This document shows, in pieces, positions 4,401 to 58,161 of a DNA stretch of 64,000 nt (position 1 is its first letter; the number at the start of each line of letters is the position of its first letter). Source of the DNA: Macrostomum lignano (Eukaryota). The DNA lies in assembly GCA_002269645.1 (NCBI GenBank), contig NIVC01001638.1:124001-188000 (forward strand), given 5' to 3'. The notes below the pieces were generated by a model. The model was not told the DNA's origin. It did no database searches and saw nothing but the letters and a program-made list of their open reading frames with translations. The position numbers were made by a program, and so were the translations under genes.

Positions 4401-5400
4401 GGTGTCGGGCAGGCTGTGAGAGTCGGTCGAAGAGCTTGGGCGGGTACGTTAGGGCCGATAAGCTGACTGGCGTTGCTGCAGGGACAAGAACTCTTTGGCT
4501 CTTGGCTGGCAGTAGAACTAAACTGCGTGGCTGGGCGAGATGTAATGTCGGCGCGAGGAGCGGGATCAGGTCGATCGGCGCCTGACGATAAGCGATTGCC
4601 GGTGCTGCGGGCTTATGGCGGCTGGGAACTGGCGTTGCCCAGAAGGATGGCGGAAGCGAAGGGCGCAGCCGGCGGGGTAGTGGAAGCGGCTCTGAGCGTC
4701 TTCAGCTTGCAGTCGAGGTGGCTGTGGAGCTGTTTTATAGTTGCATGAGAGGCTGCCCGTTGCGGATCTCGTTCTGCAGCTCGATCCAGAGGCGGCTCCA
4801 GAGTGCGTAGACGTAGCCGTCGAGGGTGCAGGCGAGCTCGCCAAGGTGGGAGAGCTGGCCGGTAGCGAGTCGGAGGGCGTCGGTGTAGGTCTCGAGCTCG
4901 TCTACGTCGGAGGCAGAGCTGCAGCATAGTCCGAGGAGGCGTTGGAAGCAGGTGTTTTTCTGCTCCTGGGCGTCGGCGTAGTTAGCCTGGTGGACGCGGC
5001 AGGCCTCAGCGTAGGCGTTGGGTTGGTAGGCATTGAGGGCGCCCAGCTTCCTGCGGGCGCGGCCGGATAGGAGACCGCGGAGTGCCTCGAACGACGTCGT
5101 TGAGGCTGGATTGATCGACGCGGTAGATGAAGGCGTCCCAGAACCCAGAAAATGCAGCAGGTCGGTGCCGTCGAGTGTCGGGAGACGGACCTTTTTGAGA
5201 ACAGTGGAGCGGATGAGCCCGGACGGATCATGAGCATCTGATGCAGGCGTTGATGCAACTGGTGTCGAGGCTGGACGGACATTGGCGGCGAGCTGCTGAA
5301 TAAGCTGCTAGTTCCGCCAGTGAACGAGCCGAGAGAACCCGAGGCCCCGCTAGGGGCCGAGGGCGAGTAAATAATTTCTACCCATGGCGGCCGAAGAAAA
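4400..5400 (-). mobile_element. GC-rich low-complexity coding-like region upstream of the BEL pol; possible gag/protease remnant
   Basis: Contiguous with the BEL pol, same composition and strand; no diagnostic motif recognised. Confidence 0.35.
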
Positions 5401-20937: not shown

Positions 20938-23900
20938 ATTTTTACTCTAAATTTTTGTTTAACTTTCAAAGTTACAGAAAAAATTTAAGTTAATTTATTT
21001 GTAAAGCAGAAATGAATAATGGATGGTGTAAGGTTCATATTCAGTTTAGAGGATCAAGCACACTAAGATGTCAATAAAAAGTGTTGAAAGCAATTAGGGG
21101 TTATTATAAAAAATAGATACATTCAATCTTACCAACATCATCACTAGTCATCTCCTGGTATTCAAGTTCCATTTGAGACTCTTCTGTGGGCTCAGGAGCA
21201 GCATGAATTCCAAGCTCTGCCATAGGCTCAGTTGGCTGTTGACTTGGATCTTCAGTGTGACATGGGCAATGCAGCATAACTGCAGCTTCCTCGTAGCTTC
21301 TCTTATATGTCGTTGGACTGTTCGCTTACTGGCTCCATGAACAGATGTTGAGGAAAAACCTAGACAAATTATAGAGAAATGGATGAAATGAAAGCCTCAT
21401 AATTACGCCAGCATAATGAAGCCTTCTATGCCTTCAATACCTTGAGCAAGACCTAGCAAGAAACTGTCAGAGTATCAAGATCATACCCTTGATAATGAGT
21501 ACTCAACATAAGTATATGCTTATTGCAACATATATATAATATAAATTATAGCAAAAAATATGTTTATATTACAAATCTAATATACAATCCACAAATTTCC
21601 TAAAACTTGCATCTTGTGCTTTAAAGAAAATAATAATTGTTTAACAACATTGCAAGCTTTATTTTCTCCAAACAGAAGCATTATAGATAAAAAAATTTAC
21701 TCAAAGTTTTGCCAAAAGCAAAAATAAATCAAGTTGACAATTATCATTATGAACAAATCCCAAATACACCAAATTCATCATTTAGCATAGCAAACATTTT
21801 TATAGGCAAGGTTTGATTTAGGGTCTAATATAGTAGAACTAAAACTAATAAATATAATAAATAATAAAACTAATATAGGGTCTTTAGGAGCATATATAAA
21901 AATTAACAAATTAGGTTGAATACAAATAGCCAGCATTATATACTTTTAAGCTTGATACTCAAGTCTCTTGAATTTTGACTAGCACTTCATATCCAACAAA
22001 TAACTTTTCAATAAATTTTGTTTTATTTAAATTAATTTAGCTATCATTAGCTAGTTATTAAATATAACATTTCTTATGAAACAATCTTATACCATAGTCC
22101 AGAAGAAGGCATCTTGTACCCCAGAAATTTCTAGGGTACACTCAAGAAATTTAGCATACATTGGCATACACAAAAAGTGATTTTCTAAGGCTTTTGGCAT
22201 ATATGTTTAATATTTTTGTGACACACAAAGAATGAAAAGTTATGTTATTAATAATTGTTACAATAGTTGTCCATGCATACATTACTATAAAATTTGATAT
22301 AAAATTAATGCAAAACTGAATTCTGTTTTTTATAAGTTAAAAGTCATGATTTTTAACAAAAATGCACAAAGTTTACTTTTGTTTTTTTAATATATATAAC
22401 ATTATATAAATATAACTATAACTGTTATTTTTAGTTTTTAGCTCGTCTCATTTAAATTAAATATCTAAATCACCCATCATGTTCCATCACTTATTCCTAG
22501 CAATTTAGATGTTTTGTGTAAAGTATTATAAATGGTATATATTGGCATTAAAAGAATGTTGACAGTTTTTTTGTGGGGCACATATAGTGTTCTGAACTAT
22601 AGATCTTATACAAAAAATCTATGATTTGCAACACTTTTTATTTATAGTTGAAATTTGCTCTTTAATCATTTCTAAGTCTATTTTACATCCAAAATGCAAA
22701 AAAACTTATTGATATTTGCAATCTACACTTTAATCTTTATTTTGGCAGTCTTAGTCTTACTTCTTATAATAAAGGAATGTTTAGACAAACATTTTATGAT
22801 ATAGAGCAATAGGCCTAATATAGATATATAAATAGACTATACCAAATGGTATATAATTGAGGCAAACTTGAACTAAAAATAGTTAGTATATATATATATA
22901 TATATATATATAATCATATTTATACCAACAACATGAGTTTGTATTATATTTATATTATAGGGCCTAGCAACATATTATACTAACTAACCTTAAGTATTAG
23001 GCCTATACTAACAAATGTTTGGCCTAAATAAGGCTAAGCATAACATAATCAAAATACTTTATATATTAGATAAGCATAAAAAATATATATTAGAAACAGA
23101 GTTTCATTGCATTATTATTTACCTACAACAACTGTGTCTTCACTTAGAGTAGGTGCAGAAGCAGATGGCCCAGACAAAAATACAATATTAGATGCTAGAC
23201 CACTAAGGGCCTGGTCCTGATTATTTGCAACTTCAGGTTCAACTTGATCTTTGTCTATCTCTTGGGTAGTTTTGCAAGTTACAATCAAGTAAACAAAAAA
23301 AGCTATGGTTGTAATCCCAGGAGCAAACAAAAAAACTGGCATTCCCAACTTAATATAGTAGCCAGGCTAAGGCCTAGGCAATAATATTTTTATGTTCTTT
23401 AAGTTTAAATTCAAGGGCTAGTGTAGTAGGAAGAGCTTTGCAACAACAGATTTTTATCTAATTAATTTTAGTTACGTTTTTGTATTCTAGGCCTTCGACT
23501 TATGCCAACTTTAAAGCTAAGCAAACATGCAATAAACCAAATAAAAAGCTAAACAAAAAGTCAAATAGAAAGTTAGGTAAACAGTAGGCCTAAATAGCAA
23601 CGATTTTTTTTGCAGCTAGAAATCCGTGTCGATGTGCCTGACGGTAGAAATTAAATCAAGTTGGTTAGTAAAAACTGTAGCAGCTACATTTAACAAATCT
23701 TTACGTATACATTAAAGAAACAGATTCTTCTGAATTAGAATTACATAAATGAATAACTCCGTACAATTTTAATTTAAGGAGCTCCCGAATCTAAACGAGT
23801 TGCAATAATTCAATTGCCAGAAATTCACACATTTGAAATCTTTTTCTATATCAATGTTCCTGCAACAATTCAGCAACATTTTTATGTCAACGTTGATGCC

Positions 23901-30984: not shown

Positions 30985-31410
30985 CGCGTGCATCAGATGA
31001 TGGTGCTGCCCATGCCGCCCGTCTCGGAAACCGTCACCGGCTCCGACTGTTGGTTTCACACCCTCGGAAGCTGGCCCTCCACAGCTCGACCAACTTCAAC
31101 AGGGGGCATGGCACAGCGCTCCAGAACCAGCTGGGCCACGTAGGTCGTACACGGCAGATGAATCTTCTCCTCTGTCGTGTTATACGTTCGTACAGGATGA
31201 CGCGGAGGTCCCCGGTATAGTCCGGATCCACTACGCCACCCTGCACAGTCAGACCCCGATTGGCCCAACTTGAACGGCTCGCGATCCGGCCGTAGGTGCC
31301 CGGCGGCAGGATGACGCGAAGGCCTGTGCAAATTACGGCTCTGTCCCAGGCCTCCACGACCCGGTCTTCACATGTGGCTAAGTCTACTACTAACCCCCTG
31401 CACTGCTATC
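30985..31410 (-). pseudogene. dut: Trimeric dUTPase pseudogene
   Basis: All five motifs recognisable: SAG..DL, GRIASRSS, GGVVDPDYTGDL, VAQLVLE (after a frameshift) and ETGGMGST. Confidence 0.9.
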
Positions 31411-37368: not shown

Positions 37369-38225
37369 ATGACTGCCATCACGTCAGAGGACGTCCTAAC
37401 TCTGAGTGCTCTGACGGAGGGAGCAAAAATTAACATCGGTGAGGTCTCGAGGAACGAGGAATGCTCGTTTCGCTCCGTCTCCTGGAGCCGCAAGGGCGAG
37501 AAGAAGAGACATCCACTGTGTCTACAGTCTGAGAAGCAGATTGAGCTGCTTCGTCAACAGAGTGGAGCATCAGCACTCAAGCGCTCAACCAAGCTCTGCT
37601 GAACAACGAGATGAGATCGCACTGTCTTTTCTGGGAGAAGGCTTCTGCAAAACTCTATTCAATACGTTGAGGTAAAATTTTAGCTTTTTTTTCTAGTTCG
37701 AGAAATTGAAGTACGACTAATTAACAAAATCCTATTCTACACCGTGCAGATTTGTGGAACGGGCAATAGTCCGGGAGTTAGAAGAGAAGGCTGATTCTAA
37801 GACGCTGATTCGCGTGACCTCGTTCTCTGCCCGCAATTCACCTGATGGAAACTCGAGAGAAGCCGTACCTGCAGTGCAACGAGTTACAATTAGGCCAAAT
37901 TTCACCTGCCTTGCCCTTCGCTTAGACGAAAGCAACAGCCGGCCAGAGGGACGAGAGGCCAGGATTGAAGAATTTAAAGAGTTGACTGGCCGATAGCATG
38001 TCAAAATTCAAGTAAATTCACTGTACTGTCCTGCTAAACCGGGGACCAACTGAAGGCTCTCGTTCGCACTTCGCTCCATTGTGCTCACCGAGTGCAACCC
38101 GAATCGGCTGGAGACATTCGCAGTGCTTCGCAGACAAGTCCAACTAATTCCAACTACACTGTACCGCACCCACAAAGAACGAGAAAGAAAGACCCCAACA
38201 ACACCGATCAACCAAGTTGCTGAAA
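37369..38225 (+). pseudogene. Frameshifted spliced orphan gene, tentatively of the 53689 family
   Basis: Coding-like segments with a putative intron ~37672-37748; EGREARIEEFKEL resembles NEKEARIEELNKI of ORF 53689..54360. Confidence 0.35.
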
Positions 38226-38905
38226 AACGACATAGCTATTTCTGCATTACAAGAATAGAGGAAACACGCACCCACAAAGAACAAAAGAAAAGATCTTAAT
38301 AAATTGCAGAATTCAAAATTGTGCCAAAATCCCTCTGCAAGCAAAACCCAGCTCAGATCAGGACACAGGCAGTAAATAAGCCACCTGCTGCGCCCAGCCT
38401 TTTGTAACATGAGTCTTTCAAGACCCCAATTTTTTAATTTTCGAGAAAAGACCATTGAGACTTACGAAACTAAATATACTTGAATACAACTTGACTAAAA
38501 TATAATACGCCAAAAAAATATGCAGTTTTTAACTCTCAGTCACTGATCGACAAACCGATCACATCCGAAAAACCGGGTAATTGTAAGTGTTGCTGTGACA
38601 AGATTCTTCTGAGTTCGCTACTGACGGCCATGCACAATAATAAACTGAACCATCGTAGTAAGAAACAGTCTTTCGGTCGAATCAAGTTGACATGTCTATA
38701 TATTTTAACAGATCGGATACACCTTTAGTTTCATGACGTTAATTTCTTGATGCATGGTAAACCACCACAAATGAACGCAAAATTGCGATTTGACAGTCTT
38801 AAATAACTTTAAAATTCCCTAAAGAATATTGGATAAATAATTACAATACTAATATTACCAAATTATACACGAGAAACTACATATCACTATCGTTCCATTG
38901 CACAG

Positions 38906-39223
38906 TCAGGCGTCCGCAGTCAAATCACAGTAGTCAACAGTAGTGAATCTTCCCGACTCCTTCTCACGGAAAAAGAATCGGAAGCAGCCAGCACCTAGGG
39001 CTTGTACAGCCAGGGTGTATTCACCTTCACAAGCCGTGACATGCTCGGGGTACATATATCCCGGAGGCGGCCGCACAAAGACCCCGTTCTTGAACGCTGC
39101 AAAGAGAGAAGACGCAGCCCATTACTAACTGATCAGCCTCTTAATAAACAAAAAGCCCAATAACTGCTTGCCGTCTCTCACATATCGCTCAGCTAGTTCC
39201 TTCTCTCGGGCGGATTTGTCCAT
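38906..39223 (-). CDS. One-intron 80-aa microprotein gene, copy A (intact, GC-AG intron)
   Basis: Exon 1 39172-39223 + intron 39097-39171 + exon 2 38906-39096 give 243 nt open: MDKSAREKELAERYVRDAFKNGVFVRPPPGYMYPEHVTACEGEYTLAVQALGAGCFRFFFREKESGRFTTVDYCDLTADA*. Confidence 0.75.
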
Positions 39224-39924
39224 ATTCGTAGTGAGTGAGAGTGTTAAGACAAGACTAGAAAATTTTCCGGACTGCTGTCGGTAGGATCTTATATTCAGCA
39301 AAATTACTCATAGGAACGACTGAGATCTCATGTGGTGGATTAGAAAGGGTCAGAGTTGGTTGAGAGGAAGGGGTGGATCAAGTTTGGAGCCGCCAACGTA
39401 AAGGGAGCGAGAAGGGGGGTTCGTTCTACCCAGTCAGCAGGGGTTTTCGCGTTGGCGGCAGCTGAAATATCGCAACACAGCACAACTATTGCCCCCCCCC
39501 CCAGCGTCACTTCAACGAGTTGGGGGGGGGGTGACTCATTTTGAGTGCCTGGAATTTCAACTTATTGTGCCGCTAGCTACGGTACCTACCATGCAGATCC
39601 CATGGGATTATTTCCACTTCAGTGAGTCATCGCAAGCCTCGGGGAGTGGAGGATGCGTTTTGCCACGTAAACTAGACTATGTCGACTTATCCACGTTGCA
39701 TTATTAGAACAATGGAGCAGCTGAGCTCACACGTGGGGTGGAGCGACCCGAAGCTAACATAGCAACTATAGGGATTATTCAAGCCCAACCCTCAGAAACT
39801 GCCACGTGGCACAAAAAGCCAGATGGCGCCCCTCCCCACCAAATCCTGCTCTAAAAAAGAAAGTAGAAAAATTCGCTCAAACTGCCAACGAGCCAAGGAC
39901 AACAGGAAGCAAGAAATGTTGAAA

Positions 39925-40682
39925 ATTGTACAAGTGTACAAACTTACCACATCCCGATAGCGCAGCTCCACAGTCTCGGTGGCCTCGGCGTGCGGAACAA
40001 AAGCCTCGGTGCGGCCGCCAAACAGGGCTTCCTCCAGACGAATAGGATGCTGGACTTGCGCTCCCTCGTCCTGATAGTCATGCTCCTACATGACACGTAC
40101 ATTGTAGGCAGTGGAGAGCAGGCGAGTGAAGCGCTCAGTCTCCTCATAAATTGCCCGCATTGGCTGGTTCTTGAGCGGGTGCAGCACATCGCCGTTGGGG
40201 AAGCACTTGGGACAGCCATGGTAGAAGCAGCCGTGAAATTGGAGCACCGTCCTAGTCTCTGGGTCGAAGCCATCCACCTTTCGGCCCATGGCGAAAGCCT
40301 CGCCGCCAGAGTCGGCTGTCCGAAACCGGCCGTCAAACTCGGTTGCATTCAAGTGTGCAAGCCAGCACCGCGCCTTGTGCGACTGCACATCTGACCGGCG
40401 AGAAATCACCCCAAGAGTGTTGGGCACCATAAACTTGGTGGTGAATACTGTCATAGATTGTACAAATGCGTCCAGTCCGCAAATGTCCTTAATCAGGCGG
40501 CCGTACTTAAGACAGCCTTCCCGCAATATTAGCGTGTCCTGCAGGCAGTCGTCAAGTATTCCTTGTTAAAATAAAACACTTGGCCCTCCTGCTTTGCCAG
40601 CCAGTCAGCGATGGAGTCGTGTTGCTTATTCTTTTTCCCGCCATACATTTCAATTGAGCAGTAAGGCCCCATGTAGCCCCAG
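39925..40682 (-). pseudogene. Polinton/Maverick protein-primed DNA polymerase B fragment, including the inserted Vsr-like nuclease region
   Basis: GYMGPY...FYFNKEY, ILREGCLKYG...GLDAF, KVDGFDPETRTVLQFHGCFYHGCPKC, LEEALFGGRTEAF, YRDVVSLY (PolB motif A). Confidence 0.88.
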
Positions 40683-41640
40683 TTAAAAATCTCACAGGAG
40701 GCGCGCGAACCGAAAGGCAGCCTGGTGTCGAACATCGTAGTTTCGCAGTCCTGGCTTAGAAAGCGCCACTTTAAACCAGTAAGACAATGGTCATCAGGAC
40801 TGATGGCGACGGACCTGTAGGCATCTTTAAAATCCACTTTGGCCATAAAGGAACCGGGCTTTAAATGCTTTTTGAATTCTCGAACAGAGCCAAAACGGAT
40901 GCCTTTTTCCTGCTGATAGTAGTCCTTAACAGAGTCGCGGAGCGGAGCAGATGGATCGTGAATGAGGCGAACTTTCCCGTTGGCTTTAGGCAAGGCACCA
41001 ATGGGTTCACTTTCACAGGCTCCTGAGTAACGGTGTAGCGGCCGAGCCGAAGCTCATCCAGAAGCTGAGCTTCCACCTTGGCGGCATTCTGGCTAGCGGA
41101 TGCGTAATTATCTCTCAGAGTAGTAATATTAGGTTGCTTATTATTAACCAGACGAAAGCCGTGAACAATACCATTCATCAAATACTGCTTGTCGGGGTCG
41201 TTATGCAACAGTTTTTCCCAAGCAGAAGCCTTAAAGTCGCCAGCAGAGGAGTTAAAATTTGGTTGACGCGGAGGATTAAAAGCACTATAAAATTCACTCA
41301 GTTTTTTGTCTCCTGCATTGGCGGCGAGTCATCAGGACCGCGCTGGAGTAGTTGAGCAGGATGCTGGTGTTAATGGGCAAGATGCTGCCGTCCACAGCCC
41401 TTCACTTTGCAGATGTGGCGGTAAGAGCAGGAGTCTCTCTGGCAACCAGCAATGGCGTTGTAGCTGAGGCACACGGGCCGCGGGCATGCAGGCTGGTCTC
41501 TGCTTTGGGGTAGGCGTACACTGGTTGGTGCATGCAAATGCTTGTGATAAAGCTGAGGTGGCTCGCACCCCCACTGGCTCCCTGTGGAATCGTGCATGAG
41601 CTAGCGGAGGTAGCTGCATGAGGTAGCGGATGCAATTGTT
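40683..41640 (-). mobile_element. DIRS/Ngaro-like tyrosine-recombinase retrotransposon fragment (gag C-terminal Cys/His motif plus RT N-half)
   Basis: WEKLLHNDPDKQYLMNGIVHGFRL, GKVRLIHD, FMAKVDFKDAYRSV, TRLPFGSRASCEIF; upstream CSYRHICKVKGCGRQH. Confidence 0.85.
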
Positions 41641-41644
41641 ATAG

Positions 41645-42084
41645 GAGTTGATTTACCATCGTGCAAATTCACATTGACATTGGCGGCTGGATATCAAGTA
41701 GATTTTACGAGTACAATTGCAAATTCACTTAGAACCATATTAGGATTTAATTCCCGAATTGTTACCGCATCAAGCACGGGTGATACCGTAGGAAACATTG
41801 AGGGTGGAGTTAATCCAATAAAAAATACAACTGATATCTCAAACGGCGGTTATATAACAGACGACAGCGGGTTTTTGGTTCAACGCGGAATTATATATTC
41901 GATTCCATTTCTAGCAGTACCGATTGGAGATAAAATGATAGTTGCACCTTAAACCCCAATATATTACTTATTAAATCAATATAATATTCAATCAATTTTT
42001 ATTCGTGTTGTGGATGATTCTGATAGATTAATTAGTTTTGGTGGACAAGATATAACATTAATTTTAAGAATAAAACAAGTTTAA
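41645..42084 (+). pseudogene. Polinton/adintovirus-like minor capsid (penton) protein, C-terminal part, one internal TAA
   Basis: SLRTILGF...IIYSIPFLAVPIGDKMIVAP*TPIYYLL...IFIRVVDDSDRLISFGGQDITLILRIKQV* matches the typical Polinton mCP C-terminus. Confidence 0.75.
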
Positions 42085-42096
42085 TCCATATCAAAA

Positions 42097-42273
42097 ATGG
42101 GTAACAATCAGTTAAAAAAACAAACGGATAAAGCTCAAAAAGCAAAAAACACATATGAAACTGAATTAACGAAATTAAGACAACTTCAAGCAGAAAAAAC
42201 GAAAAAGGAACTATTAAAACCACCAACGAATAAACAAACAAAATCAAAAAAGTTTTTCAATAACTTAAAATAA
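42097..42273 (+). CDS. 58-aa basic ORF between penton and protease
   Basis: MGNNQLKKQTDKAQKAKNTYETELTKLRQLQ...; open frame, tightly packed between the two flanking viral genes. Confidence 0.45.
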   Translation: MGNNQLKKQTDKAQKAKNTYETELTKLRQLQAEKTKKELLKPPTNKQTKSKKFFNNLK

Positions 42274-42275
42274 CT

Positions 42276-42692
42276 TTGAGTTGGGATGCATTTAAACAAA
42301 GATATGGAGTTGACACAACTAATAATATTGAGTTAACAAAGTGGGCGCGGCAATTAAAAATAAAACCATTCAGATGTGTTATGCGCGATGAAATAAAAGA
42401 TTTACCAAAATATGGGTCTTTCATTGTCAATATTGAAACGACTAAAGAAAACGGTGTACACTGGTCAGCAGTTTATTCAAAACCAAAAGTTGTTTACTTT
42501 TTTTATTCTTATGCATTACCTCCATTGCAGGAAATGGAAGACAAATTTAATCATACAAAAAATCGTTTATGTGGAGATCATCATGAACAATTTCAAACCT
42601 TTGATAAAAGTTATTGTGAACAGGCGGCGTTGTATTTTTTATATCGAAATAATAATTCTAACCAATCGCCCGAAGATTTAAAAATATTTTAG
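42276..42692 (+). CDS. Adenain-like (C5) cysteine protease of Polinton/adintovirus type
   Basis: FIVNIETTKENGVHW, YFFYSYALPP (canonical D replaced), QFQTFDKSYC: catalytic His, oxyanion Gln and Cys in the expected spacing. Confidence 0.8.
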   Translation: MSWDAFKQRYGVDTTNNIELTKWARQLKIKPFRCVMRDEIKDLPKYGSFIVNIETTKENGVHWSAVYSKPKVVYFFYSYALPPLQEMEDKFNHTKNRLCGDHHEQFQTFDKSYCEQAALYFLYRNNNSNQSPEDLKIF

Positions 42693-42713
42693 ACTCTATA
42701 AAATAGACTAAAA

Positions 42714-43350
42714 ATGTTATTTTCTGGAACACCCTCATGAAACGGAACAGCACGAACCGGCGGTGGAGAATCAACCGGCGTTTATGTTTCATTTGCAGAT
42801 GGCAGATATATAAATGAAGATGTAGGTTATAAAAAAGTGAAATAGATACTAAATTAAATTTAAAACGGAATGTTGCAGATTCGTATACCAAAACTGAAAT
42901 AGATAATTCAATAAACTTAAAACGTAATACAGCAGATTCCTATACCAAAACAGAAATTGATAATTCCTTAAATTTAAAACGGAATGTTTTTGATTCATAT
43001 ACCAAAACAGAAATTGATGATTTATTAAATTTAAAACGCAATATATTAGATTCTCATAGTCAAGCTGAAGTTGATTCTGCAGTTAATGCAAAAAGAGAAA
43101 TAAGCGATTCCTATTCTCGAACCGATTCTGATTCGCGTTATGTTCAAACCACAGCAACTGGAACCTTGGATATGAGTAACAATAGAATTATAAATGTTGC
43201 AATTACAACGAATAACTCAGTAGTTGATAAAAACTTCAATGCAAAAAAAGTCAATGCACGAGCTAATGTAACTGATGATGATATTTTTGACACGCCACTT
43301 ACATCAAATACATCAAATCCTGATTTTATTCTTACAGCTTCTAAAAAAAA
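42714..43350 (+). pseudogene. Fibre/spike-like protein with 19-aa DSYTKTEID repeats, truncated
   Basis: Four to five 57-bp repeats DSYTKTEIDNSLNLKRNxA followed by GTLDMSNNRIINVA; stop and frameshift near the start. Confidence 0.6.
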
Positions 43351-43379
43351 CAATGACGCAATTAAGTGCCCCTGCTCAA

Positions 43380-43790
43380 ACTGCATCAGGGCCTTCGCAG
43401 TTGACAGATTCTCGATAGAATAGGTCAGCTTCTTAAACCTCGTATCCAAGTCTACCTTTGTCGTTCCATTCAAATTCATGGCGATCAAGTTGAGACCTTC
43501 GGAAATTGCACCCAGAGACAACTTTACACCGCGACTCTCATTCTCTTCCAGCTTCGCGTATATCCTTGCAATAACTCTCTCTCGCTCGCTCTCTTCCATT
43601 TTCTTGGGAAGCGCCCTCTTCTTATCCGGAATCAATTCAAGCTCTTCCAAGCTCGCCTGGAACCTTACCAACTCTTCTTTCCAGCTGCTCAGTCTGCTTC
43701 TCATTGCCGACCTTTCTTTAGATGACAGCGAGACCGCCAGTTCGGCAATCGTTGCAATTCTTGTCTCTTTTGAAGAAGAAACTAGAAAAT
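43380..43790 (-). pseudogene. Coiled-coil-rich orphan ORF fragment abutting the fibre-like gene
   Basis: Part of ORF 43144..43704; abrupt composition change near 43355 marks a junction. Confidence 0.35.
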
Positions 43791-44384
43791 GAAGAGCCAG
43801 ATTCTCAAGGCAGCAAAGATTTAAATAAACACATTCCAGAATCTTCTTGAAGTGGGTTGCAAATGTATGCTATAGCAGCTTGGAGGGGGTTGATAAATGG
43901 CTGTTCGCAGCTAATCTAAACCTTTAATTCTTTGCATGATGCTGAAGGCTTTTTGAGTGAGTCATAGAGTATAGAAGACAGAGGGTGATGGACATATAGA
44001 AAGTAAAGTGATATGAAAGAAGCCATGATTCTTAGTCATCGTGACAACAATGATGTCTACAATTCGAATACATTCTGTCGCACAGGGTAAAAGAGATTTT
44101 TTTTGAAATTCAGAAGAAATTCTATTGTGCAAAAATCTGCATCAGAAGTTTATTAATGTTTTAGCTTTTCATTGTTAACGAATAAATTGTAACTTCTGTT
44201 GGGGTTACTATCGTTAAATTGGTTGACACTTTCATATTGTTTATTCTTGAAAATAGATTATATTAACCCCCTAAACCACACATTTCTCATGGTTTTACTC
44301 ACGAACTCTCGAAAATTGCACTTTTTATAATATTTGAAAATCACAAAAAATCACTGTTTTCAGACCATTTTTACGTGTTTTTAG

Positions 44385-44695
44385 TCAATTTCACATATCT
44401 TTAGTGATTTTTAAATGAGTGAGGGCATGAAAGCGAGGGAACGCTTCTTTTTTGAAAGTATAAATATTCTGAAAAAATCTGTGTTTCGCATGCCCTCACC
44501 CTCAACACCCTCAATATATATGTATATAAATATACATATATATACGAAATATGTCGTATATATATAGCTCGTATGGATACAATATCTGTGAAAAAAATCT
44601 GTGTTTCGAATTCCCTCACCCTTAACACCCTCACAATATATATATATATATATATTGTATTGTATGTATATATTGTATATATTGTATGTATATTG

Positions 44696-44734
<39 letters not shown>

Positions 44735-44865
44735 TGTGAGGGTGTTGAGGGTGAGAGCATGCGAAACACAGATTTTTTCAGAATTTTTATACTTTCAAAA
44801 AAGAAGCGTTCCCTCGCTTTCATGCCCTCACTCATTTAAAAATCACTAAAGATATGTGAAATTGA
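44385..44865. repeat. Long palindrome: ~130-bp near-perfect inverted arms around a loop with (TA)n tracts and a third partial arm copy
   Basis: Arm 44385-~44515 is the reverse complement of ~44733-44865. Confidence 0.92.
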
Positions 44866-46879
44866 GTTGCAGTACAATACAGTTGCAATATATATTTTTA
44901 TTGTATTTATATTGTATTATATTTATTGTATTTATATTATATTATTATATTTATATTGTTGCTTATATTTATATATTTATATATTATTTATATATTTATA
45001 TTCACATGTTGTGTATATTCACAACAATATATACAGTATATATTCACACACACAATATTTATCCCCCCACCCACTTGCAACTGCGACTTCCTGGTAGTAG
45101 TAGCATGATGTAAGGGGATGAGTCATCTGCGAATGGAGCGAACTGCGCCCGAGCGATCAATGTGGCTCCTCCCCTTACATCATGTACTACTCTTCTCTTC
45201 TTTCCTAGCCTTTTCCATGTGACGTGGTTTAGGTTTTGTTTGCTCGTATGGGCAGTGTTGATATTGGCGTGAGTCTCAACGCTGCCACCAGTATTGTGCT
45301 TTTTGGTTTGGCTCTCACTACTGTGGCGGGTTTTTGACAGGTACTGCTGATGCCTGAAGCAACCTTACCTAGCACGTGTATGGGGACTGAGACTGGGGAA
45401 AAGTCTAAAATTAAGGGTAGTGCTGCCACCTGCCTAGGTACCGTAGGATCCGCAATGAAGGGGTTTGTTTGGGTTCCACGCAAATAAATAACGCTATAAA
45501 AACTAGTCTCAGAGATTTCAATGTCAAGATAACAGGAGTCAATGGTACCAAATGGCCTAAGCGGCGCAGTCCTGGCACTGACTGAAATTGTCAGTGCTTG
45601 AGCGTGTCTGAGTTTTGCTCTCAGAGGACTCCTAACTCCTGATAACCTTGATGCTAACTAGTCTCACGCAGATGGGTGGCGAGGATAGGTCTATGCGCCT
45701 GAAGCAGCATATAGCGGATGTTTTTGTTGTTTATCCACTACCTTCTGTCTACGACAGCAAAGGATGGATAGAACACAATACACTGATTTTAATTGCCTAG
45801 CTACATTTTTCCGTAGCCACGAGCCTACGGCCGAGCTCAGGCCCGTAGTGGAATCGCGCACGTGTGCTGCGACGGCACAATCACTCTCACTCTTGAAGCT
45901 CGAAGTTCGAAGAATGATAATTACTATTTGGCACGCGTATGAATAGAGTATGAATTGGTTACGAGATTGAGCATAGTTTAAAACAATAGATTGCCCTGAA
46001 GGGTGTTGAGATTGCTATACCCTGAAAAATAATGGCTACAACGCCTAATTTGAGACCTAAGTGGCCTGTCACGGCGACAATAAGTAAAGTAACAAGAGAA
46101 ATGCATAGAGGAAAAATTAGATTGAATAAAAGAAAAGGTTAATGCGTTCCTGAAATTGTAATAGTTGTTAAATTGCACCGTCAGTTAAATTGCCTTCAAA
46201 GTTCTATTCCCGCAGCTCGGCTTTAAGCAAAGGTGGCAGGCCCTGGTAACCTTGCTCGGCGGCAATTCTGTGGGCCACTGATCCGGCCGTCTGCCGGTTG
46301 AACAGTCCGCCCGATAGCTTTTCAGCGGCCAGGCTGGTGGCTCATTCAAAGAGGCTGACCCGATACAGCCGGTCCTCAGCCCGGAGCTGCGCCGACAGGT
46401 CCGGTGGCAACCCCTCGAAGATATTCCCGCGCACGCCGGCCAATAGATGATGTCGGCGATTTCAATCGCCTGCCGCTCTCTTATCCACGCGGCTAAATCC
46501 TCCATCGAGGAGGCGCGACTAATCGGCCACGACGGCGGCGCCTTTGCCCTAGCCTCTGGGCAAGGTCCTGGCGGCCTGACGTTACGAGCATGTAACGGGG
46601 TGACCGTAGCCACCTGGGCAGCAGCGCGGCGCAGCTTAATAAAGAGCTGCTTGCCCGCCGGGCCGCAAAATCGCCCTCCTCTTCTACCACGTTTTCGCGA
46701 GTTTGGTGGGTGCCCTACGGGGTCGCTCCATCCTTTGAACTGCGCGCCTGTTTTGCCGCGCTGGCTCCTATCAGGCGCAAGCCCCCGGCTTGCTGCACCA
46801 CTGCATCGCCGCTATCAGATGGCACCAGCCGGTTAAGGCGTAGCGGCGAGGCAACAGTCCATCGGTGAGTCTGGAGCTC

Positions 46880-47835
46880 CATCGATAGTAAGTCTGTCCT
46901 CTCGATCAGCGGAGCTGGTACTGGTGCTATTCCACGCCTTTTTACATGACTCAGAATCGAACTTTTCATAGTTTACTTTTCAGTGAATACTTTGTACATT
47001 TCATCACCACTGTCTATGTCGCGGAGTATGAGTGCTACCTTGTACCAAGAATCATAGTCTTGGTCTTGGTTTTTGTGTGCATTATATTTAACAACTTTGA
47101 AACTCCTTCACAAGTGGGTGGTGGAACGTCGCTTTTTAGTGCCTTTTTATCGGATTCTTGGTTTTCCGTTTTATCCTGTGGCTTAATTAATCTATTTATC
47201 TCATCAAGAATTACATCTGGCATGTCTATTAAGCCTTCGGGCTTTATATGTTTGTATTCCTTAATTTCACCATTCACATAATAGAAACCTGGTGGAGCAA
47301 ATACTAAAGCCGGAATATCAAAACCCACTCTTTGTTGAATCGTTACTTTTAATGTATCTACCTTGTTAAAGTAAAAGTGGTGACCCTTGTTTGTCTGAAC
47401 AATCCAATCACAATGAGTCATACACAGTTCATTCAACTCAGGGCATAGGTCAGCATCATCAATATCGATTACGGTTATATTCGAATTTCGAGTATCTATC
47501 CAAATCATGTTGTCTACCTCTGGTCGAAATGGTGGGGAGGTTGAATTCCTATCTGCTTTTGTTGGCATTCCTGACGGTATTTTTTTCTTTGTTTTACTAT
47601 TCCATGTTATACTGCAACTTCCGAATCTAAAATTAAGTTCTCCATAGAGATTAATTAGTTTATCGTACAATTTTGTTTGTTTTAAATTTCTTAACCTTGG
47701 TGGTGGGGCATCATGATTTTGAAGAGGATCCTGTACGATCACAGGAGAGAAACTTAAATCGTTTTGATTTTTTCCTTCCATTTTATTAAAAATAAATTTA
47801 ACAATATAATTCATCAGTTGCAATGTACTTCTCAA
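46880..47835 (-). pseudogene. Bifunctional primase-polymerase (Prim-Pol) domain plus PriCT-2 domain; helicase portion missing
   Basis: ITVIDIDD and QTNKGHHFYF (AEP motifs), VFAPPG; after a frameshift DYDSWYKVALILRD...KKAWNS...DRLTI (PriCT-2-like). Confidence 0.72.
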
Positions 47836-48299
47836 GGGTTATGGGGAGTTTGAAAATGTTCAATTTCAGCATGACGAAAAATTCATCATTCCTTATGTGC
47901 TGTCTCGAAATCAATGCCCATTTATCAACATGTGCAAGATATACTCTGAATGAATACAAATATGGGGGCATTTAAAATCGGTGTGTTTTAATATTTCTGC
48001 TTTATATTCATCGTAAGCTTATCAATTTCTTCAATTCGTCGAGCCTTTCGAGTGGTGTTTTTATTTGAGAAAATGATTTAATAGAATCATAGCACTTTTG
48101 TGATAGAGCATTTCGTACATTTGGGCTATTAGCTTCCATTTTTTCTAGGAAAATTTAAGTCACAATCTGATTCAAGTGGAAGTGAGCCCGTTACCAACAA
48201 CAGACCTCATGCTGAGAATATGTAAATGCAGACTTATCGAATCGGCTGTAGTGTGTTTGCAAATTTCTGAATATAGTGGACTTACCCCCAGATTGTTAC

Positions 48300-48560
48300 T
48301 TTTAGTAGTTGACTGAGCCTTCTCTTCCTCCTTTGGTGTTGCTTTAAGCCCTTTACGCTTGTATAACTTTCAACATCTCTAGGGGTTCGTTGTAGCCTTT
48401 CAGCTTTTTTAGTTCTTCGGCTGCTTTTGCTGCGTCAATTTCTCCTTTCACAGCGGTAGCTATAGAACCTGCTGCTGCTCCTGCTTGTGCAATTAGAGGT
48501 TAGTTGTCTTTTACTAAGTTTCCTACTTGCCTAGCAAAGATGCAAAACCCTCTCCTCGTG
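48300..48560 (-). pseudogene. Possible Polinton-type core/virion protein fragment
   Basis: RGFCIFARQVGNLVKDN*PLIAQAGAAAGSIATAVKGEIDAAKAAEELKKL: amphipathic Ala/Gly-rich pattern; contains stops. Confidence 0.3.
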
Positions 48561-49173
48561 TATTTTCGTCTCTATACCCAAGTCTGCCATATTGTTCTTT
48601 TGTTATATTCATTTTCAGCTTCTATTTTTAGGGGGTAGAAAAATTCGTGCACGCGAGCCCAGTAGTGGTCAATGAGTAAGACAGGAATGCAAAAGACTCT
48701 TAAGACACAAAAGAGGGCTGACTCAGCCTGAGCGGATCTGGTGGAGCACGCTGGGCGCCGTTTATTCAAATAGATGGTGTGCATTTTACTCTATCAAGTA
48801 AAATTAGTCAGACACTAGCACAATGTTCTGCTTTATTTTAAAAAGATGCGTTCTTGGATATAATTCAAAGCGATTCAGTCACTATAATGAATCTTGATGA
48901 AAAATTATGAATCCTGATTCATTGGCTCCTCTATACCTCCTGTTCGTCTTGGTCGCGGGAATTCTCGAATGTGGTGGTTCCTGCTGTGGCGGCGGCGGCG
49001 GAGCGTATGGAGTGTAGTGTGCGTACGCACAGTATGGTACGCCCGGGCAGTCTGATTGGCTGCGGAGTGGGGTGGGTGCCGCCACCCCAATTCTAACTCC
49101 ATAATATATAGACGCGTGCCCAGCGCGGCGAGATTTGTAAGAGTTTGGCTACACAGCAAACACGGCCTCTGAC

Positions 49174-49491
49174 TCAGTTACTACATGGAGGTGGTGGTTT
49201 AATTGGAATTAAAGCAGCGGCATTACCAAGTATTTGCTCCTGCTGTAGCTGATTATGAACACTATCAATAGAGCGCTCTTTTCGTATGAGCTTTTGAGCC
49301 AGCTTCAGCAGTGCTATATCCGCGTTGATCTCGTTGAAATTATCTCGACATCGTTGAAGAAATTGTTCGGTCGTCATTGTGAAGACAAAATGTGTCTTTG
49401 AATACTGATCCATATAAACGGCTAGAAATGTGTTGGCTTCAACTCTGTATGAGGGATGTTGCGCGCGAAGAGTTGGTCTCCCGGCGGCCAT
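49174..49491 (-). CDS. 105-aa orphan ORF
   Basis: Open ATG-to-stop frame with TATATAAG about 30 nt upstream of the ATG; no motif recognised. Confidence 0.35.
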   Translation of the reverse strand: MAAGRPTLRAQHPSYRVEANTFLAVYMDQYSKTHFVFTMTTEQFLQRCRDNFNEINADIALLKLAQKLIRKERSIDSVHNQLQQEQILGNAAALIPIKPPPPCSN

Positions 49492-50151
49492 TTCGTTTTT
49501 TCTTAGATGACAGCCTTATATAATAACTTATTTATGTATGGTGATAAAACCATCTTTGCGCCAAAACTTATATATGCAAACGCGCACCAATCCACACTCA
49601 TTCCGTTTTCACAAGTAATTTTTATTGGTTGGCAAAATATTGTCACTGGCAAAAATTTCATTCTGGCAAAAATTATAATTCTGCCAGTGTTTCTAAGAAT
49701 AGACTTCCTAAAACCTGCTCAATCCTGTATAATCAAGGATTGTGTTAGATTTTTTTTCATTGTGGCACTGAATGCGAGTGCTCGGGGTTGGTCAATCTGG
49801 CTATTTTGTATGGTAGATTACTACTGCCAGTGAAAAAAATATCATGCAACATACTAGGGGTGAAAATGAATAATTCTAACACCCACAGGTTTAGAGAAGT
49901 GTGACTTACTGCGGAAGCTTTGGATTGTGCACTTATACGCAGTTAACTAGTTTTCGCTTGCCCATTGAAGGGTTTAGAAAGAAATAATGGTTTACTGAAG
50001 GCCATTATATATATATATTAATTTACTAATTTACTATCGTTAAATTGGATGACACTTTCATATTTTATATACCTAAAATTGCATTGAATTGACCCGTGAA
50101 TCCAACTTTTCTCATGGTTTTACTCTCGAAATCGTAAAAATTGCACTTTTT

Positions 50152-51960
50152 TTAAAATGATGCCCTTATGATGCCCTTCTTCAGCATATCATCGAGCATC
50201 TGATCCAATTGCGGTCGTAGATGCGGAGGTATCCGGCGAGGAGGAATCGCGATTGGCGTCGAGTCTGTGAGCACTATCTCATGAGTTACCAGGTGTGTCA
50301 GTCCGTGGTCCACTGGAGTAGAAAGAATGCCTTCTCGCATTCCTTGAGTAAATCTTGAACCTGATGCCTCTGGTGGCTGTTCAGCTGGTCTCCGATGTCG
50401 ACCTCGTTGATCCAACTGTCAGTCGTTTCTTCAGCCGTTAGCAGTTGACGGACTTCTGGCTCATTCGACTCGCTGAAGTACTCGAGGTCCTGGGTCTTGA
50501 GTGGTGTAACTCCCATTAGCATGTTGCGACGCAATTGAACCTCTGTATCTGATGGGTTAAGTACTTCCATCACTCCTCGACCTTCTGTCATCGTATGCAG
50601 GACCGGGGCTGCGTCTAACTGGTGATGCTTCGCTCGCAGTCCTGATTTGAGTGGTTCGATAATCATCGGTGAACCGTAGTTCTGCTGATGACCTTCGGCT
50701 AGTTTAATGGCGACGAGGCAGGAACATTGAGGCGGCAGAGTGCATTTTTCAGCGACGTACACTCGGCAGGCCTTCAGTTCTCTCCTTGAATAGCGTACCG
50801 GAAGTCGGGTGCCTTGTCGGAATGTGAGCATTCCTTGCTGGAAGTCTAGTCCTTGGCAATGACTCCGCATGAAATCAATTCCTAAAAGATTTTCACAGTC
50901 TCCTTTGGCGACGAAGAATTCGGTTTATGCGACATAGTCCCAGAATTCAACTAATAGGATAACCTTGGCGGCGAGACTTAACTCGGTCCCGTCGTACATA
51001 GCGACTCGGTTAGGGTAAGCAGGTGCAACTATACAACGTGGTGGACGACGCCTAATGGCGGCCCAAGTGGACGCTCCGAGGAAGTTTCTTCTGCTTCCGC
51101 TGTCTAGCAGAAAAGCGACCTCTCGTCGAGCCACTCGTCCTGTAATAAATGGATCGGCGTCACGCGCATGGACTGTATTTACAAAGGAGGCGTTCACGAA
51201 ACCTCCATCGACCGTTTCTTCGATTACTGACGACTCGGACGAGTCAGCTACCGCGGCTCCGGGGCCATACTCTTCCGGGTAGTGTTCGGGTAGTGTTCGG
51301 CTGTGGCCTGCTGTGCCAACGTGTTGAGTAGATGCTGCTGCTGCTGCATCATTGCAGATTGTTGCTCAACGACTTTTTCCAACTTCGAAAGGGCGCTGTT
51401 GTTGGGCTCCTTTGAGGCTTGTCCCTCCCCGTCCAACATTCTGACCGGGGGCTCGTTCGAAGGATGAGCCAGGTCTTTGGCTAGTCCATCCTCTTCAGTG
51501 TTTGCAAGGCTTCGCTGAGTGTCGTAGGTCGGATCCAGGAAAGTTTCTCGCGGCAGTCTGATTGAAGAGTTGATTCGGGAGGTGATCAGTCACCCGAAAA
51601 CTCCCACTTCCAGACACTTAAGCCTGGGAACAGAATCAGTGATCACTTACTGTGGCGGGCTCTTCTTCTGTGTCGGGCAGGTTCTACGAGCTCCTTCCTT
51701 GTTTCTTCTTTGTTGCGCGCGTTTGTAGAGTTCGCTTCTTCCAATCTTCTTCTCCGGAGGAATCTTCTTGAAGTCTTCGAAGTCCAAAGTCGGCCGAGAG
51801 TGAGAGCAGAACAGTGAAGTCGACGTCGAAATATCTCCTTGAGTGCGGGATTCAGTACGTTTCTCGAGTGTCAAATCAGTATCAACAGTGCGCCCTAATA
51901 AGCTCAAATTCTAACGCGAGGTCCTCCAAAGGGGGCGTCTTCTTCTAGATCTAACGGAAT
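50152..51960 (-). mobile_element. Gypsy/Ty3 LTR retrotransposon fragment (gag remnant, aspartic protease, start of RT)
   Basis: VAFLLDSGSRRNFLG (protease), HEIVLTDSTPIAIPPRRIPPHLRPQLDQMLDDMLKKGIIRAS (RT start); truncated at 50152. Confidence 0.88.
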
Positions 51961-53688: not shown

Positions 53689-54360
53689 TCAAATTTGAGG
53701 TTGCTGCAACAACTCATCCGCTGCCTCTTCATCCAGCTTCTTCATGACTTCCGGCAGATGTTGTATGCACGACCGAATCTGATACAGTGATAGCGTGCAG
53801 CCATGTAGGCGTGGATGTGCCTGTGCCAAACTCGCAAGCTTCATTAGAAAGTTGATCCACGCATTGCTGAAGCGGGTGGATTTTTTTGGTTCCTTGAACT
53901 GATTCTTCGAGAGATGACGCTTCATATTGTTGTAAATTGCTCCTGCTTGGATGCCATACTTGACTCCATAGTTATTAAGACGCTTCAGCTTGTTGAATAT
54001 CTGGATAAATTGATCCTTTACAACATGAATAGTAAATCTACCAGTACAGAATTCTTCATTCGATGGATCCCGAGCATCCACAGGTTCGCACGAGGTGCGG
54101 AAAATCTTATTCAGTTCCTCGATTCGAGCTTCTTTTTCATTAGAGGTTTTAGGTAGGCTATCCGTGATAGTGGATAAAGGAAACCGTACTCTTGCAATAG
54201 CGTTGTAATTGCCAACCCACACCTTCCAGTTGCTCAAGTCGTCGCTCTTGAAAATTGACTCCAGCAGGTGCTCTAAACTCTTGCAGTACTCGTCCGCGTT
54301 GTCAACTTCCATTTGGTTTTCCATTTTTAGTATCCGAGTTGGCGCTAAGAGGATTGTCAA
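53689..54360 (-). CDS. Orphan helical protein (probably the last large exon of a spliced gene)
   Basis: 223-codon open frame with an acceptor-like CTCTTAG near 54345; clear paralogue at 31867-32092. Confidence 0.6.
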   Translation of the reverse strand: MTILLAPTRILKMENQMEVDNADEYCKSLEHLLESIFKSDDLSNWKVWVGNYNAIARVRFPLSTITDSLPKTSNEKEARIEELNKIFRTSCEPVDARDPSNEEFCTGRFTIHVVKDQFIQIFNKLKRLNNYGVKYGIQAGAIYNNMKRHLSKNQFKEPKKSTRFSNAWINFLMKLASLAQAHPRLHGCTLSLYQIRSCIQHLPEVMKKLDEEAADELLQQPQI

Positions 54361-55216
54361 AAGAGAAAATCTATATTATCCGTTCTACGAGTATATTATA
54401 TATGTTATGTAGGTGATGGTTGAATTTACTTACCAGATACTCGTAAATTCTGAGCTTAAAGCAGAATGTCGCTGAGTGGCAATGGATTTTAAAATTTTAG
54501 AAAAAAAGCCAGCTGTCTTGATGCTCTGCCAGATTTTCAATTTTACTTAAACACGATACAATTGAGTTGGGGCAGGGTGGGCGTACAATTCCTGCTGCAG
54601 CAAGATTTTGCAAGCTAGCGGAAACTGCAAATTACTTCTTAAGCTACAGACAACAGTATGTCATTCTGCTTTGACTATCACCTGTGTAGTGTGTGATGCT
54701 CAGCTTCTCAGCAAACTAGCTCGTATACTTCTGAATCACACGGCTAGCTTTTCTTCTACAGCCCCTGCACGTGAGTCAGTTTACGCTTTTTTTAAATTTA
54801 TAAAGATTTGAGCTAGTTGAGTTGCTTCCTTTCTCTGTGAAAAAATGAACAATAGAGTCGGGGTTTAAGAAGTGCTCAATTCCTGCTGCAGCATGCTGAT
54901 ATATAAAACTTATTGACTCAACTGGTAAACTGTTAGGGTTAGGTACATGTAAGTTGCTTTGCTTCATTCTTGATGCAAAAAAGCTAGAAAGAATGTTGAG
55001 TCATTTGTGATTCGAATAAAAAGGGAACATAGTTTCTTTCAGTGTGCATTGTGCAGTGCGATGCCATGCATCTCAAGTACATTTGGCGCTTAAAAAATAA
55101 AAAAAATTGCAAAAAATTGCCATGCTAAATTGCGAAAATTGTGCAATTTTTTTATATTAAATTGCCGAAAATTATACTTAAATTTCATTTTTTCTATATT
55201 GTGAGATTTTGTTCTG

Positions 55217-56423: not shown

Positions 56424-57665
56424 TTACGCGTTAGCTTGGCATGCTTCCCAACATATTTCTGCTATTCCTTGACTGGATCCTGATCGGATGAGCCAGCTTT
56501 TTTTAGCTTTAGTTGCCATATCTCTAAACATCTGGTTGAGAGACGAGCGAACAGCGCTCCAACTGAATGACTCGAACCAGTTGGAAAGAAGGTCCTTTAT
56601 TTCCTGGACGTCTTCAGGACACATGACAACATGATCGGATTTGGACTTAGGCTCGACAATAGCCTGTTTGCAATAGTCTTTGCCATACTTTTTTAAAACG
56701 AAGTCACGTGCAAAAGTTGTAGGTTGAGACGGTAGCTGCGATAGCCTGAAGTTGGAACCATCGTGGCTGATAAAAATTTTATCGACACGCTCCAGTTTCT
56801 CGCGTGGGGCTAGAATGTCTCTTATTAATAAACTGTTTTCTTCCGTCTTGTTGAGAATTTGCTTTAAAATGCTTGTTTGAACACGCGCTTCTAGCAGAAG
56901 AAGTTGTGTTGAAGATGTGGCCTGCTGATTGATCTCGGCTGTGGACTGCCTTTTTGGTGTTTCTTTAGTGGCATTTGGTGTTCTGACACTAGAAGATGAT
57001 GCCTTTCTTGAAGTGTTTTCATTTTCACAGGGAGGCGTTGAGATAGGCCCAGAACTTCTAGATTGCAAATGACGTAACGAGTGCTCCTCGAGGTGAGGTC
57101 TTTTTGAAAAATTAGCAAGCAGATGTTGCTCTTTCTCCATTTCAGCAGCCATAGCTTTGTGCACAGACGGCTCACGACACTCTGTCGCAGCAACCGCTGT
57201 TGCTGCGCTTCTTTCATGAATGCCAGCTGTCAGCTCAGTTCTGTCCTTGGGGGGCGCCGGTACGTAAGTCTCGTCATTAACCTCGTCATCGCTGTCGATT
57301 CTGTCAGCATCGCTGCTCTCACTTTCCACCTCATTGTCATTACCCAATGTCTCAATAATGGCGTCTGTAGCCATTCCTGACTCAGCATACTCTTCAACGC
57401 GTTCTTCAGCTTTTTTTATATCATTGTAGCTGCCTAGCTTAAGGATAATGGCCTCGTGATAACCTTCGCTGTCGCGGATCTTGATAGTTTGTCCCTCTCG
57501 GAGCCTGGACTTCTCAGAAGAAGAGAAATGCCGAAATGGAGCAGAGTTAATATACATTGCACCGCTATGGCGATTGGTTTTGCTAAACCATAGTAGCAAA
57601 TGGTTGAATGTGGCGCTGGAAAATGCATCACCAATTTCCCTAGGAGCTCTTCGCAACCGGTTCAT
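56424..57665 (-). CDS. EnSpm accessory protein with a C-terminal BEN-like domain
   Basis: 413-aa open frame: coiled coil followed by TTFARDFVLKKYG...EDVQEIKDLL...WSAVRSSLNQMFRD, a BEN-like helical pattern next to the transposase. Confidence 0.6.
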   Translation of the reverse strand: MNRLRRAPREIGDAFSSATFNHLLLWFSKTNRHSGAMYINSAPFRHFSSSEKSRLREGQTIKIRDSEGYHEAIILKLGSYNDIKKAEERVEEYAESGMATDAIIETLGNDNEVESESSDADRIDSDDEVNDETYVPAPPKDRTELTAGIHERSAATAVAATECREPSVHKAMAAEMEKEQHLLANFSKRPHLEEHSLRHLQSRSSGPISTPPCENENTSRKASSSSVRTPNATKETPKRQSTAEINQQATSSTQLLLLEARVQTSILKQILNKTEENSLLIRDILAPREKLERVDKIFISHDGSNFRLSQLPSQPTTFARDFVLKKYGKDYCKQAIVEPKSKSDHVVMCPEDVQEIKDLLSNWFESFSWSAVRSSLNQMFRDMATKAKKSWLIRSGSSQGIAEICWEACQANA

Positions 57666-58161
57666 TGCAGCTGAAATGAAATTTTGGTTGAAAAAAATAT
57701 GTATAATTAACCTGTCTTAAACATTTACATTTAATATAAAGTGTAGTAGAATCAAAATAAGTTACATTTCATTATTTCGATTATCATATATATTTGATAT
57801 GCACAAATTTATAAAATATTTATTATTTAAGAAATATATAACCAGTAGCACTACCACAAATTTTTCAAGGGGGTGGTGGACCCAGGAGTGAGGTGGAGGA
57901 TGTGGCTCTGTATTTTGGCAAAAATTTGCTAGCCCCCTCTAGATTTTTTTCTAGTCTCTGCGAAAGGGGGGAGGGCGCTCATTTATGTTTGCACATCCTT
58001 AATAGTGAGTAATTTTAATTTGACATACTTCACTCTATCTAATCTCCTTAAAAAGAAAACATGGAGAAAAAAGTAGAGGCAACTTGTAAACACAAGTTAT
58101 TACCATGTGCATCCACTTTATTAACAATTGCTTTCATGAATGGTTGTACAATATAGCAAAT

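Follow-up and report, generated by a model that had tools for sequence, protein, structure and literature searches.

Broken pieces of several Polinton-type families at one Macrostomum lignano locus, and a spliced pPolB family in which no capsid or integrase gene was recognised

Polintons, or Mavericks, with a Beta-class PolB are equated with the Beta adintoviruses (group 1) in PMC8502044, and the Alpha class (group 2, defined by pfam03175) includes, there and in PMC10748475, the VSR-containing pPolB2 of marine nematodes and molluscs. PMC8097293 reports that intact vertebrate Mavericks are intronless and names an rve integrase as the enzyme that leaves their 6-bp duplications. Preprint 10.64898/2026.10.13.758929 describes AEP-SF3 replicases and multi-replicase genomes, presents capsid-less replication-integration modules of a 'transpoviron'-like kind and proposes an accretion-deletion process for these viruses. 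Here we examine a stretch of 64,000 nucleotides from the flatworm Macrostomum lignano (contig 1638, NIVC01001638.1, positions 124001-188000; hereafter the window), in which a preliminary description had recognised, within about 9 kb, a single shattered endogenous Polinton/adintovirus-like virus. The region is very probably a mosaic: broken remnants of three Polinton-type families, here called A, B and C, lie together with what is likely a remnant of a fourth, a fragment of a DIRS/Ngaro retrotransposon and one other repeat. Family C, the source of the pPolB fragment, is a well-supported, unusual Polinton variant.

The distribution of related copies carries this reading. When the assembly (764 Mb, 5269 contigs) was searched by DNA with each of the three main pieces separately, scoring being limited to the best 40 candidates per search, three different sets of contigs were returned. 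In none of the 21 neighbourhoods of 20-30 kb fetched around seven copies of each piece did two main pieces stand together at family-level identity, the sole cross-matches being an orthologous protease (69-70%) at three of the seven B sites and a piece called 'core' in the preliminary description (70-71%) at four of the seven A sites. The families differ in ends, GC content and polymerase class, and GC is 0.55 in the pPolB piece, 0.32 in the A block and 0.35 in the B piece. Identity to the closest dispersed copy is likewise unequal (A 85%, C 91%, B 93%, DIRS 96%), which fits because separate insertions would give such differences. The Polinton/adintovirus origin first proposed for the pieces was right; it is the unity of the virus that fails, by the criterion that the preliminary description itself had set, since the less-decayed copies belong to three separate families and no single element in these neighbourhoods combines the window's pPolB, the morphogenesis genes and an integrase.

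Families A and B resemble the Beta-class Polintons. Family A measures 16.9 and 17.8 kb between terminal inverted repeats (TIRs) of 354-368 nt and carries integrase, capsid, ATPase, small open reading frame (ORF), protease, fibre and pPolB genes; family B, of 17.8 kb with 582-nt TIRs, has the same core set and an 840-aa primase-D5 helicase. Both begin with AGTAGT, and 6-bp duplications flank all three two-ended copies examined. Pfam places the rve, double jelly-roll (DJR) and A32 matches of family B over the cut-off; for family A this holds for A32, with rve and DJR under it. Each of the two families has a pPolB of its own unlike that of the window, found by eye and by an Endonuclease_7 match and missed by PF03175, and on these grounds the two polymerases fit the Beta class of PMC8502044. 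The likeness thus extends over rve integrase, double and single jelly-roll capsids, A32-type ATPase, adenain, TIRs, a PolB without PF03175 match, AGTAGT ends and 6-bp duplications. By contrast, the window retains only fragments, and family B adds the AEP primase-D5 helicase. The primase-pPolB block of family B adjoins the TIR in some copies and is internal and inverted in others (C2232, C412, C620, C543 and C843 versus C2696 and C273; C numbers denote contigs, L numbers fetched loci). An Eco47II-like restriction endonuclease gene, over the Pfam cut-off, lies beside the integrase at L050:4314-5024 (C2696) and in some family A copies. A further full Beta-class Polinton family has a 432-aa capsid ORF 25-39% identical to those of A and B (L180-L199; C1316, C66, C211, C2068 and others).

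The window pPolB, by contrast in class, is assigned to the Alpha type by sequence, because its sister copies pass PF03175 (63.9, 49.2 and 54.2 bits; cut-off 25.8). Like Alpha-class Polintons, family C has a PF03175 pPolB, TIRs and 6-bp duplications; unlike them, it is only about 9 kb long, shows no integrase, capsid, ATPase or protease, and has six spliceosomal introns. Its ends, ACTACT..AGTAGT, are reversed relative to the reported (AGT)2//(ACT)2. The four copies selected by pPolB span 9.0-9.8 kb, with TIRs of 903 nt in C493 and about 1400 nt in C1412, each 100% identical, and the element is filled by these TIRs, the pPolB gene, a divergent ORF resembling PC4 (no more than a lead, at an Atlas score of 0.86) and one acidic ORF. 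The UniRef records nearest to the polymerase are from Macrostomum lignano itself, and its best relatives outside Macrostomum are animal and metagenome pPolBs, 21-30% identical. The pPolB gene is interrupted by GT-AG introns of 761, 70, 232, 69, 70 and 70 nt. Among the joint rows listed for runs of three studies, with run types that are the tool's guesses, the joints of three introns occur in the putative RNA runs of all three, those of two introns in two and that of one in a single study, and none occurs in the putative DNA run. No rve match was returned by Pfam for the six ORFs of C493, a copy that was also read as a whole, nor did the A and B integrases, which as queries detect other families at 33%, match inside any family C copy. 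Capsid, ATPase and protease matches were likewise absent from seven elements selected by pPolB and 37 selected by their ends.

A sister subfamily, C2, has a pPolB 53-71% identical in protein, with introns at four matching positions and of different sequence. It has ACTACG ends (L137, C566:83.3-92.8 kb; L148-L149, C260; L134-L135, C1485) and measures 9.5-9.6 kb in the three neighbourhoods with TIR pairs. The C1485 copy sits within an 18-kb element that has similar ends and inverted arms of 3.4 kb. Subfamily C2 was considered as the autonomous form of family C and set aside, as all seven neighbourhoods lacked matches to A/B-type morphogenesis or integrase genes. Spliceosomal-type introns inside Polinton-like elements are also a feature of the dinoflagellate eupolintoviruses, where, according to PMC12166617, they are introner insertions in full protist elements; in family C four intron positions are common to two subfamilies, the host is an animal and the element is capsid-less. 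We found no account of Macrostomum Polintons or of a spliced, capsid-less pPolB element in a literature survey that covered few subscription papers and no supplements, and Repbase may hold these families.

The ends of family C are widespread. A 27-nt subterminal motif occurs 214 times in the assembly, and its reversed control not at all. From the 185 ends listed, 66 inward pairs can be formed, with 11 spanning less than 8 kb, 51 spanning 8-10 kb, three 10-12 kb, none 12-25 kb and one 40.6 kb. Perfect 6-bp duplications flank all 39 elements tested at both ends (4/4, 17/17 and 18/18), a count that leaves out two elements fetched in halves and includes C41 as read after a boundary shift. Strong variation between copies affects the first 20 nt or so that follow the terminal ACTACTA, although the two ends of any one copy usually agree there; the motif that comes next is fixed. 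In one case (L112, C558:43.5-53.3 kb) family-C-type ends and a target duplication enclose two tandem Gypsy long terminal repeat (LTR) retrotransposons.

Most of the elements sampled by such ends are palindromic. The 37 elements sampled by the end motif comprise 24 near whole-length palindromes, five full pPolB elements, one palindrome of the left half, three single-arm forms of 4.1 kb (L202-L204) and four of mixed make-up or packed with other transposons; as the 19 elements of the second batch were chosen to favour those without a known pPolB, the class shares are biased. The palindromes, which we call riders, are 5.7-9.4 kb long, with arms about 99% identical; they end like family C, are flanked by 6-bp target duplications and contain no recognisable gene (for example L123, C303:572.7-582.1 kb; L124; L129; L209-L219), and the nine ORFs of one of them gave no Pfam match. 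At L110-L111 (C1090:36.6-47.8 kb) an 11.3-kb palindrome consists of two inverted copies of the left half of family C, with ORF3, the PC4-like gene and the front of pPolB.

These features are probably best explained by a helper-dependent mechanism, in which family C is copied by protein priming and inserted by an rve integrase from another element. By analogy with established Polinton biology, host transcription and splicing would yield the pPolB; protein priming would start the copying of the excised element, whose single strands the PC4-like protein would bind; and the integrase made elsewhere would act in trans. Snap-back or template switching in the course of this copying may give rise to the palindromes. 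With confidence a little above even, we go further and suggest that the window pPolB marks a stable nuclear Polinton lineage that has lost capsid and integrase, has acquired host-type introns in its polymerase motifs and is still jumping, and that its spliced pPolB and PC4-like protein, together with a borrowed integrase, replicate a more numerous set of gene-less palindromic riders of 8-9 kb with shared ends. There would then be three tiers: an integrase donor, a polymerase donor and a rider. The 'transpoviron'-like modules of 10.64898/2026.10.13.758929 resemble such an arrangement in that a replicase module is mobile apart from the morphogenesis module.

Alternatively, family C could be one half of a bipartite Polinton, the half that provides replication, with the integrase and capsid genes carried between the same ends by the other. 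This possibility, which we hold only tentatively, would account for integrase-type 6-bp duplications around elements in which no integrase is seen. However, no capsid, ATPase or protease match occurs in the 37 elements drawn by the common end motif; the only 10.5-kb pair among the 66 is a rearranged pPolB copy in C1158; and a second capsid group lacks family-C ends and comes with a Beta pPolB of its own. These partner tests relied on Beta-class proteins and a single exact motif of 27 nt, and a partner sharing just the outermost bases would escape them. An integrase match in L207 lies in the flank, outside the element. The 73 matches to PF21738 in the genome pointed to family B and to an additional full Beta family rather than to any partner of family C. 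A corresponding search with PF04665 gave no match although A32 genes exist in the genome, and is too insensitive. The helper-dependent scheme remains the account we favour for family C.

Returning to the window, the pieces were identified by tblastn from less-decayed sister copies in the same genome, because Pfam, applied to 18 window ORFs, named only a reverse transcriptase (RT) and a Prim-Pol, each under the cut-off. The named pieces all lie about where they had been placed and match those copies with E values from 1e-14 to 1e-150, far above chance, and on this sequence evidence the family of each piece and its breaks are clear. A single piece, a small ORF of 58 aa, is intact, all others being truncated or bearing a stop or frameshift. 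The family C fragment (39927-40684, minus strand) comprises the end of the long pPolB exon, the 5' splice donor at 39947 and the first bases of an intron. Its coding part, 39948-40684, lies about where a pPolB fragment had been reported and is 87-93% identical in amino acids to the final 250 residues of a 640-aa exon ORF, itself over the PF03175 cut-off, and 88-91% identical in nucleotides to dispersed copies; it has one frameshift and two stops. The intron cut by the end of the piece splits polymerase motif A, and the same joint is present in sister copies. Between pPolB and penton lies a DIRS/Ngaro-type tyrosine-recombinase retrotransposon fragment (40679-41607, minus strand; 92-96% identical in nucleotides to other copies), which had been overlooked, and which holds the end of gag and the start of RT. 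The comparison copy L104 has the order gag, RT, RNaseH, tyrosine recombinase of DIRS/Ngaro retrotransposons, with RVT_1 over the cut-off and weak RNaseH and phage-integrase matches; in contrast to such an element, just 0.93 kb is left in the window.

Family A contributes a compact block on the plus strand whose order of penton, small ORF, protease and fibre, noted from the start as collinear, is that of less-decayed family A copies. Of the minor capsid (penton) only the 3' half remains (41622-42084; amino-acid match 41623-42081, residues 123-273 of 273), with one stop and 85% amino-acid identity to a family A copy. The 58-aa small basic ORF (42097-42273), between penton and protease, is kept in all seven family A neighbourhoods at 60-68% amino-acid identity. 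The adenain-type (clan CE) maturation protease (42249-42692; amino-acid match 42249-42689 at 80%) is broken by one stop in its front part and has substitutions at two conserved active-site positions; His and Asp are invariant in all 13 sequences of the protease alignment. The fibre-like gene (42708-43353; tblastn match 42708-43381) is the front third of a 673-aa ORF, with a frameshift, a stop and a 57-nt (19-aa) repeat in 3.6 copies, and the sister ORF carries an F5/8 type C domain in Pfam. Folds were predicted from family A sister-copy proteins, not from the broken pieces of the window, and agree with both identifications. The penton model (predicted local distance difference test, pLDDT, 69) matches PBCV-1 at Z 12.3 (root-mean-square deviation 3.2, 131 residues aligned), the mavirus penton at 12.0 (5.7, 216) and Sputnik at 11.4 (5.8, 231), as against 6.1 for the best non-capsid row, and it also matches viral minor capsids in BFVD; the family B penton is 33% identical to it. 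The protease model (pLDDT 85) matches African swine fever virus (ASFV) pS273R with E 5e-4 and adenain with E 1e-3. Next to the block, at 43360-43773 (minus strand), is a fragment of an unrelated repeat that has an ORF of 330-365 aa with a weak helix-turn-helix (HTH) match; the fragment is 94-95% identical in nucleotides to four other contigs, and its own ORF gave low Atlas scores (0.75-0.76); the repeat was not seen in the Polinton comparison copies.

The remainder of the region is largely of family B. A terminus with subterminal DNA (43923-45192, minus strand; 76-84% nucleotide identity to family B TIR and subterminal DNA) includes an inverted duplication at 44385-44865 and an AT microsatellite, and an inner part of a TIR lies at 49980-50158 (minus strand, 86-88% in nucleotides). 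Between them is the Prim-Pol/PriCT-2 part of the 840-aa primase-D5 helicase gene (46883-48183, minus strand), 92-93% identical in nucleotides to dispersed copies; the amino-acid match (46884-47838, minus strand) covers residues 1-319 with two frameshifts, and the helicase part is gone. The earlier identification of Prim-Pol/PriCT-2 was accordingly sound, as were those of the family A genes. Major capsid protein, ATPase and integrase, listed before as not seen, indeed gave no tblastn match to same-genome copies in 39001-50500. TIRs had been included in that list, and here remnants do occur, both of family B (44205-45192 and 49980-50158), even if no bounding inverted pair around the region stands among the 25 longest listed. 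Rfam gave no match in the whole window, which therefore holds no group I intron. The stretches 45192-46883 and 48720-49980 are common to C1157 and C1158 only, among the loci fetched.

The putative core protein is the least secure of the assignments. A fragment of a small virion-module gene, with one stop, is indeed present at 48359-48565 (minus strand), 51% identical in amino acids to residues 22-90 of a family A ORF and 71-73% identical in nucleotides to family A. The label of core is unproven, because the pX match of that ORF (E 8e-4, under the cut-off) falls at residues 259-300, outside the matched part. The fragment likely derives from a fourth, A-like lineage, as its position inside B-type DNA and the lack of a close dispersed copy (just 73% among 40 scored candidates) suggest. 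It could instead belong with the A block to one family A element that received family B insertions, pPolB and the DIRS fragment being the only foreign pieces; the relative orientation of block and 'core' is that of C1405 and C151, and family B ends lie between them. We consider this unlikely, since the 'core' piece is so much further from family A than the block (80-85%), its surroundings (48515-48733) border, in three other contigs, on the sequence upstream of the Prim-Pol, and a target duplication around the B pieces was not found.

The locus exists in two other versions. In C1157 and C1158 the stretch 42091-50158 is present at 97-98% identity; some 2 kb of additional sequence is inserted near 43780, and 41313-42090 is missing. 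C1157 also matches 37710-40684 (97%), and resumes from 40679 (99%) 30 kb further on; the gap, at the point where pPolB meets DIRS in the window, holds more debris of families C and A. Given this gap, the compact look of the window comes from deletion or assembly collapse in a nest of elements. Collapse, affecting the pPolB-DIRS join and with it the 9-kb appearance, has in its favour that the join is in one of three locus versions and that the surroundings are dense in repeats. It is nevertheless improbable in our view: the two sides overlap by 6 nt, of which 4 match, as at a repair junction, and the different deletion that C1157 and C1158 have of their own (41313-42090) indicates that structural variants are common here. 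In the mosaic that we prefer, the elements would have inserted into each other, and later deletions would have brought the pieces together. A single endogenous Polinton/adintovirus broken up in place, for which the packing of Polinton-type pieces within 9 kb and the collinear A block would speak, is almost certainly wrong in view of the failure of the pieces to co-occur, the Beta pPolBs that A and B possess, the GC disparity, the 30 kb between pPolB and the rest in C1157 and the missing bounding TIR pair.

Some points weigh against our interpretation. The pPolB-DIRS and DIRS-penton junctions were seen in this contig only, so that an assembly error there is possible. As scoring took in the best 40 candidates, a rare chimera of A and B modules may lie beyond them. 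The 'core' piece and the penton block have the relative orientation of family A, yet the identity of the former is well below that of the block. As for family C, the splice joints depend on the guessed types of the runs, and a source of its integrase was not found.

The window at large is dense with transposon remains. The DNA from 52885 to beyond 64000 belongs to a young element, at least 11 kb long, whose inverted arms are 99-100% identical and which has CACTA/EnSpm-type transposase ORFs, with weak Transposase_21 and DUF4218 matches and ORFs also at 53689-54375 and 56424-57716. A satellite with a 14-nt unit (57 copies of a 28-nt dimer) occupies 8054-10211, with a short inverted block at 8054-8224. 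By eye, debris at 50152-51590, 31034-31405, 234-2900, 3300-5400 and 19630-20946 includes Gypsy-like gag/protease, dUTPase (over the Pfam cut-off), RT/endonuclease of a long interspersed nuclear element (LINE), BEL/Pao-like sequence and a transposase-like ORF.

The locus itself is likely ordinary transposon debris that encodes nothing functional, and serves as a warning that clustered Polinton hallmark genes need not share one element. Family C has wider implications: intact animal Mavericks have been described as intronless and as having their own integrase, and family C departs from this in its introns and in showing no integrase gene. If the scheme outlined above is true, a spliced family without integrase or capsid, yet with fresh target duplications, would represent a virus-like element adapting to an existence confined to the nucleus. 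Its palindromic riders would offer a direct handle on the copying of an excised element by pPolB, in a laboratory flatworm for which RNA data exist.

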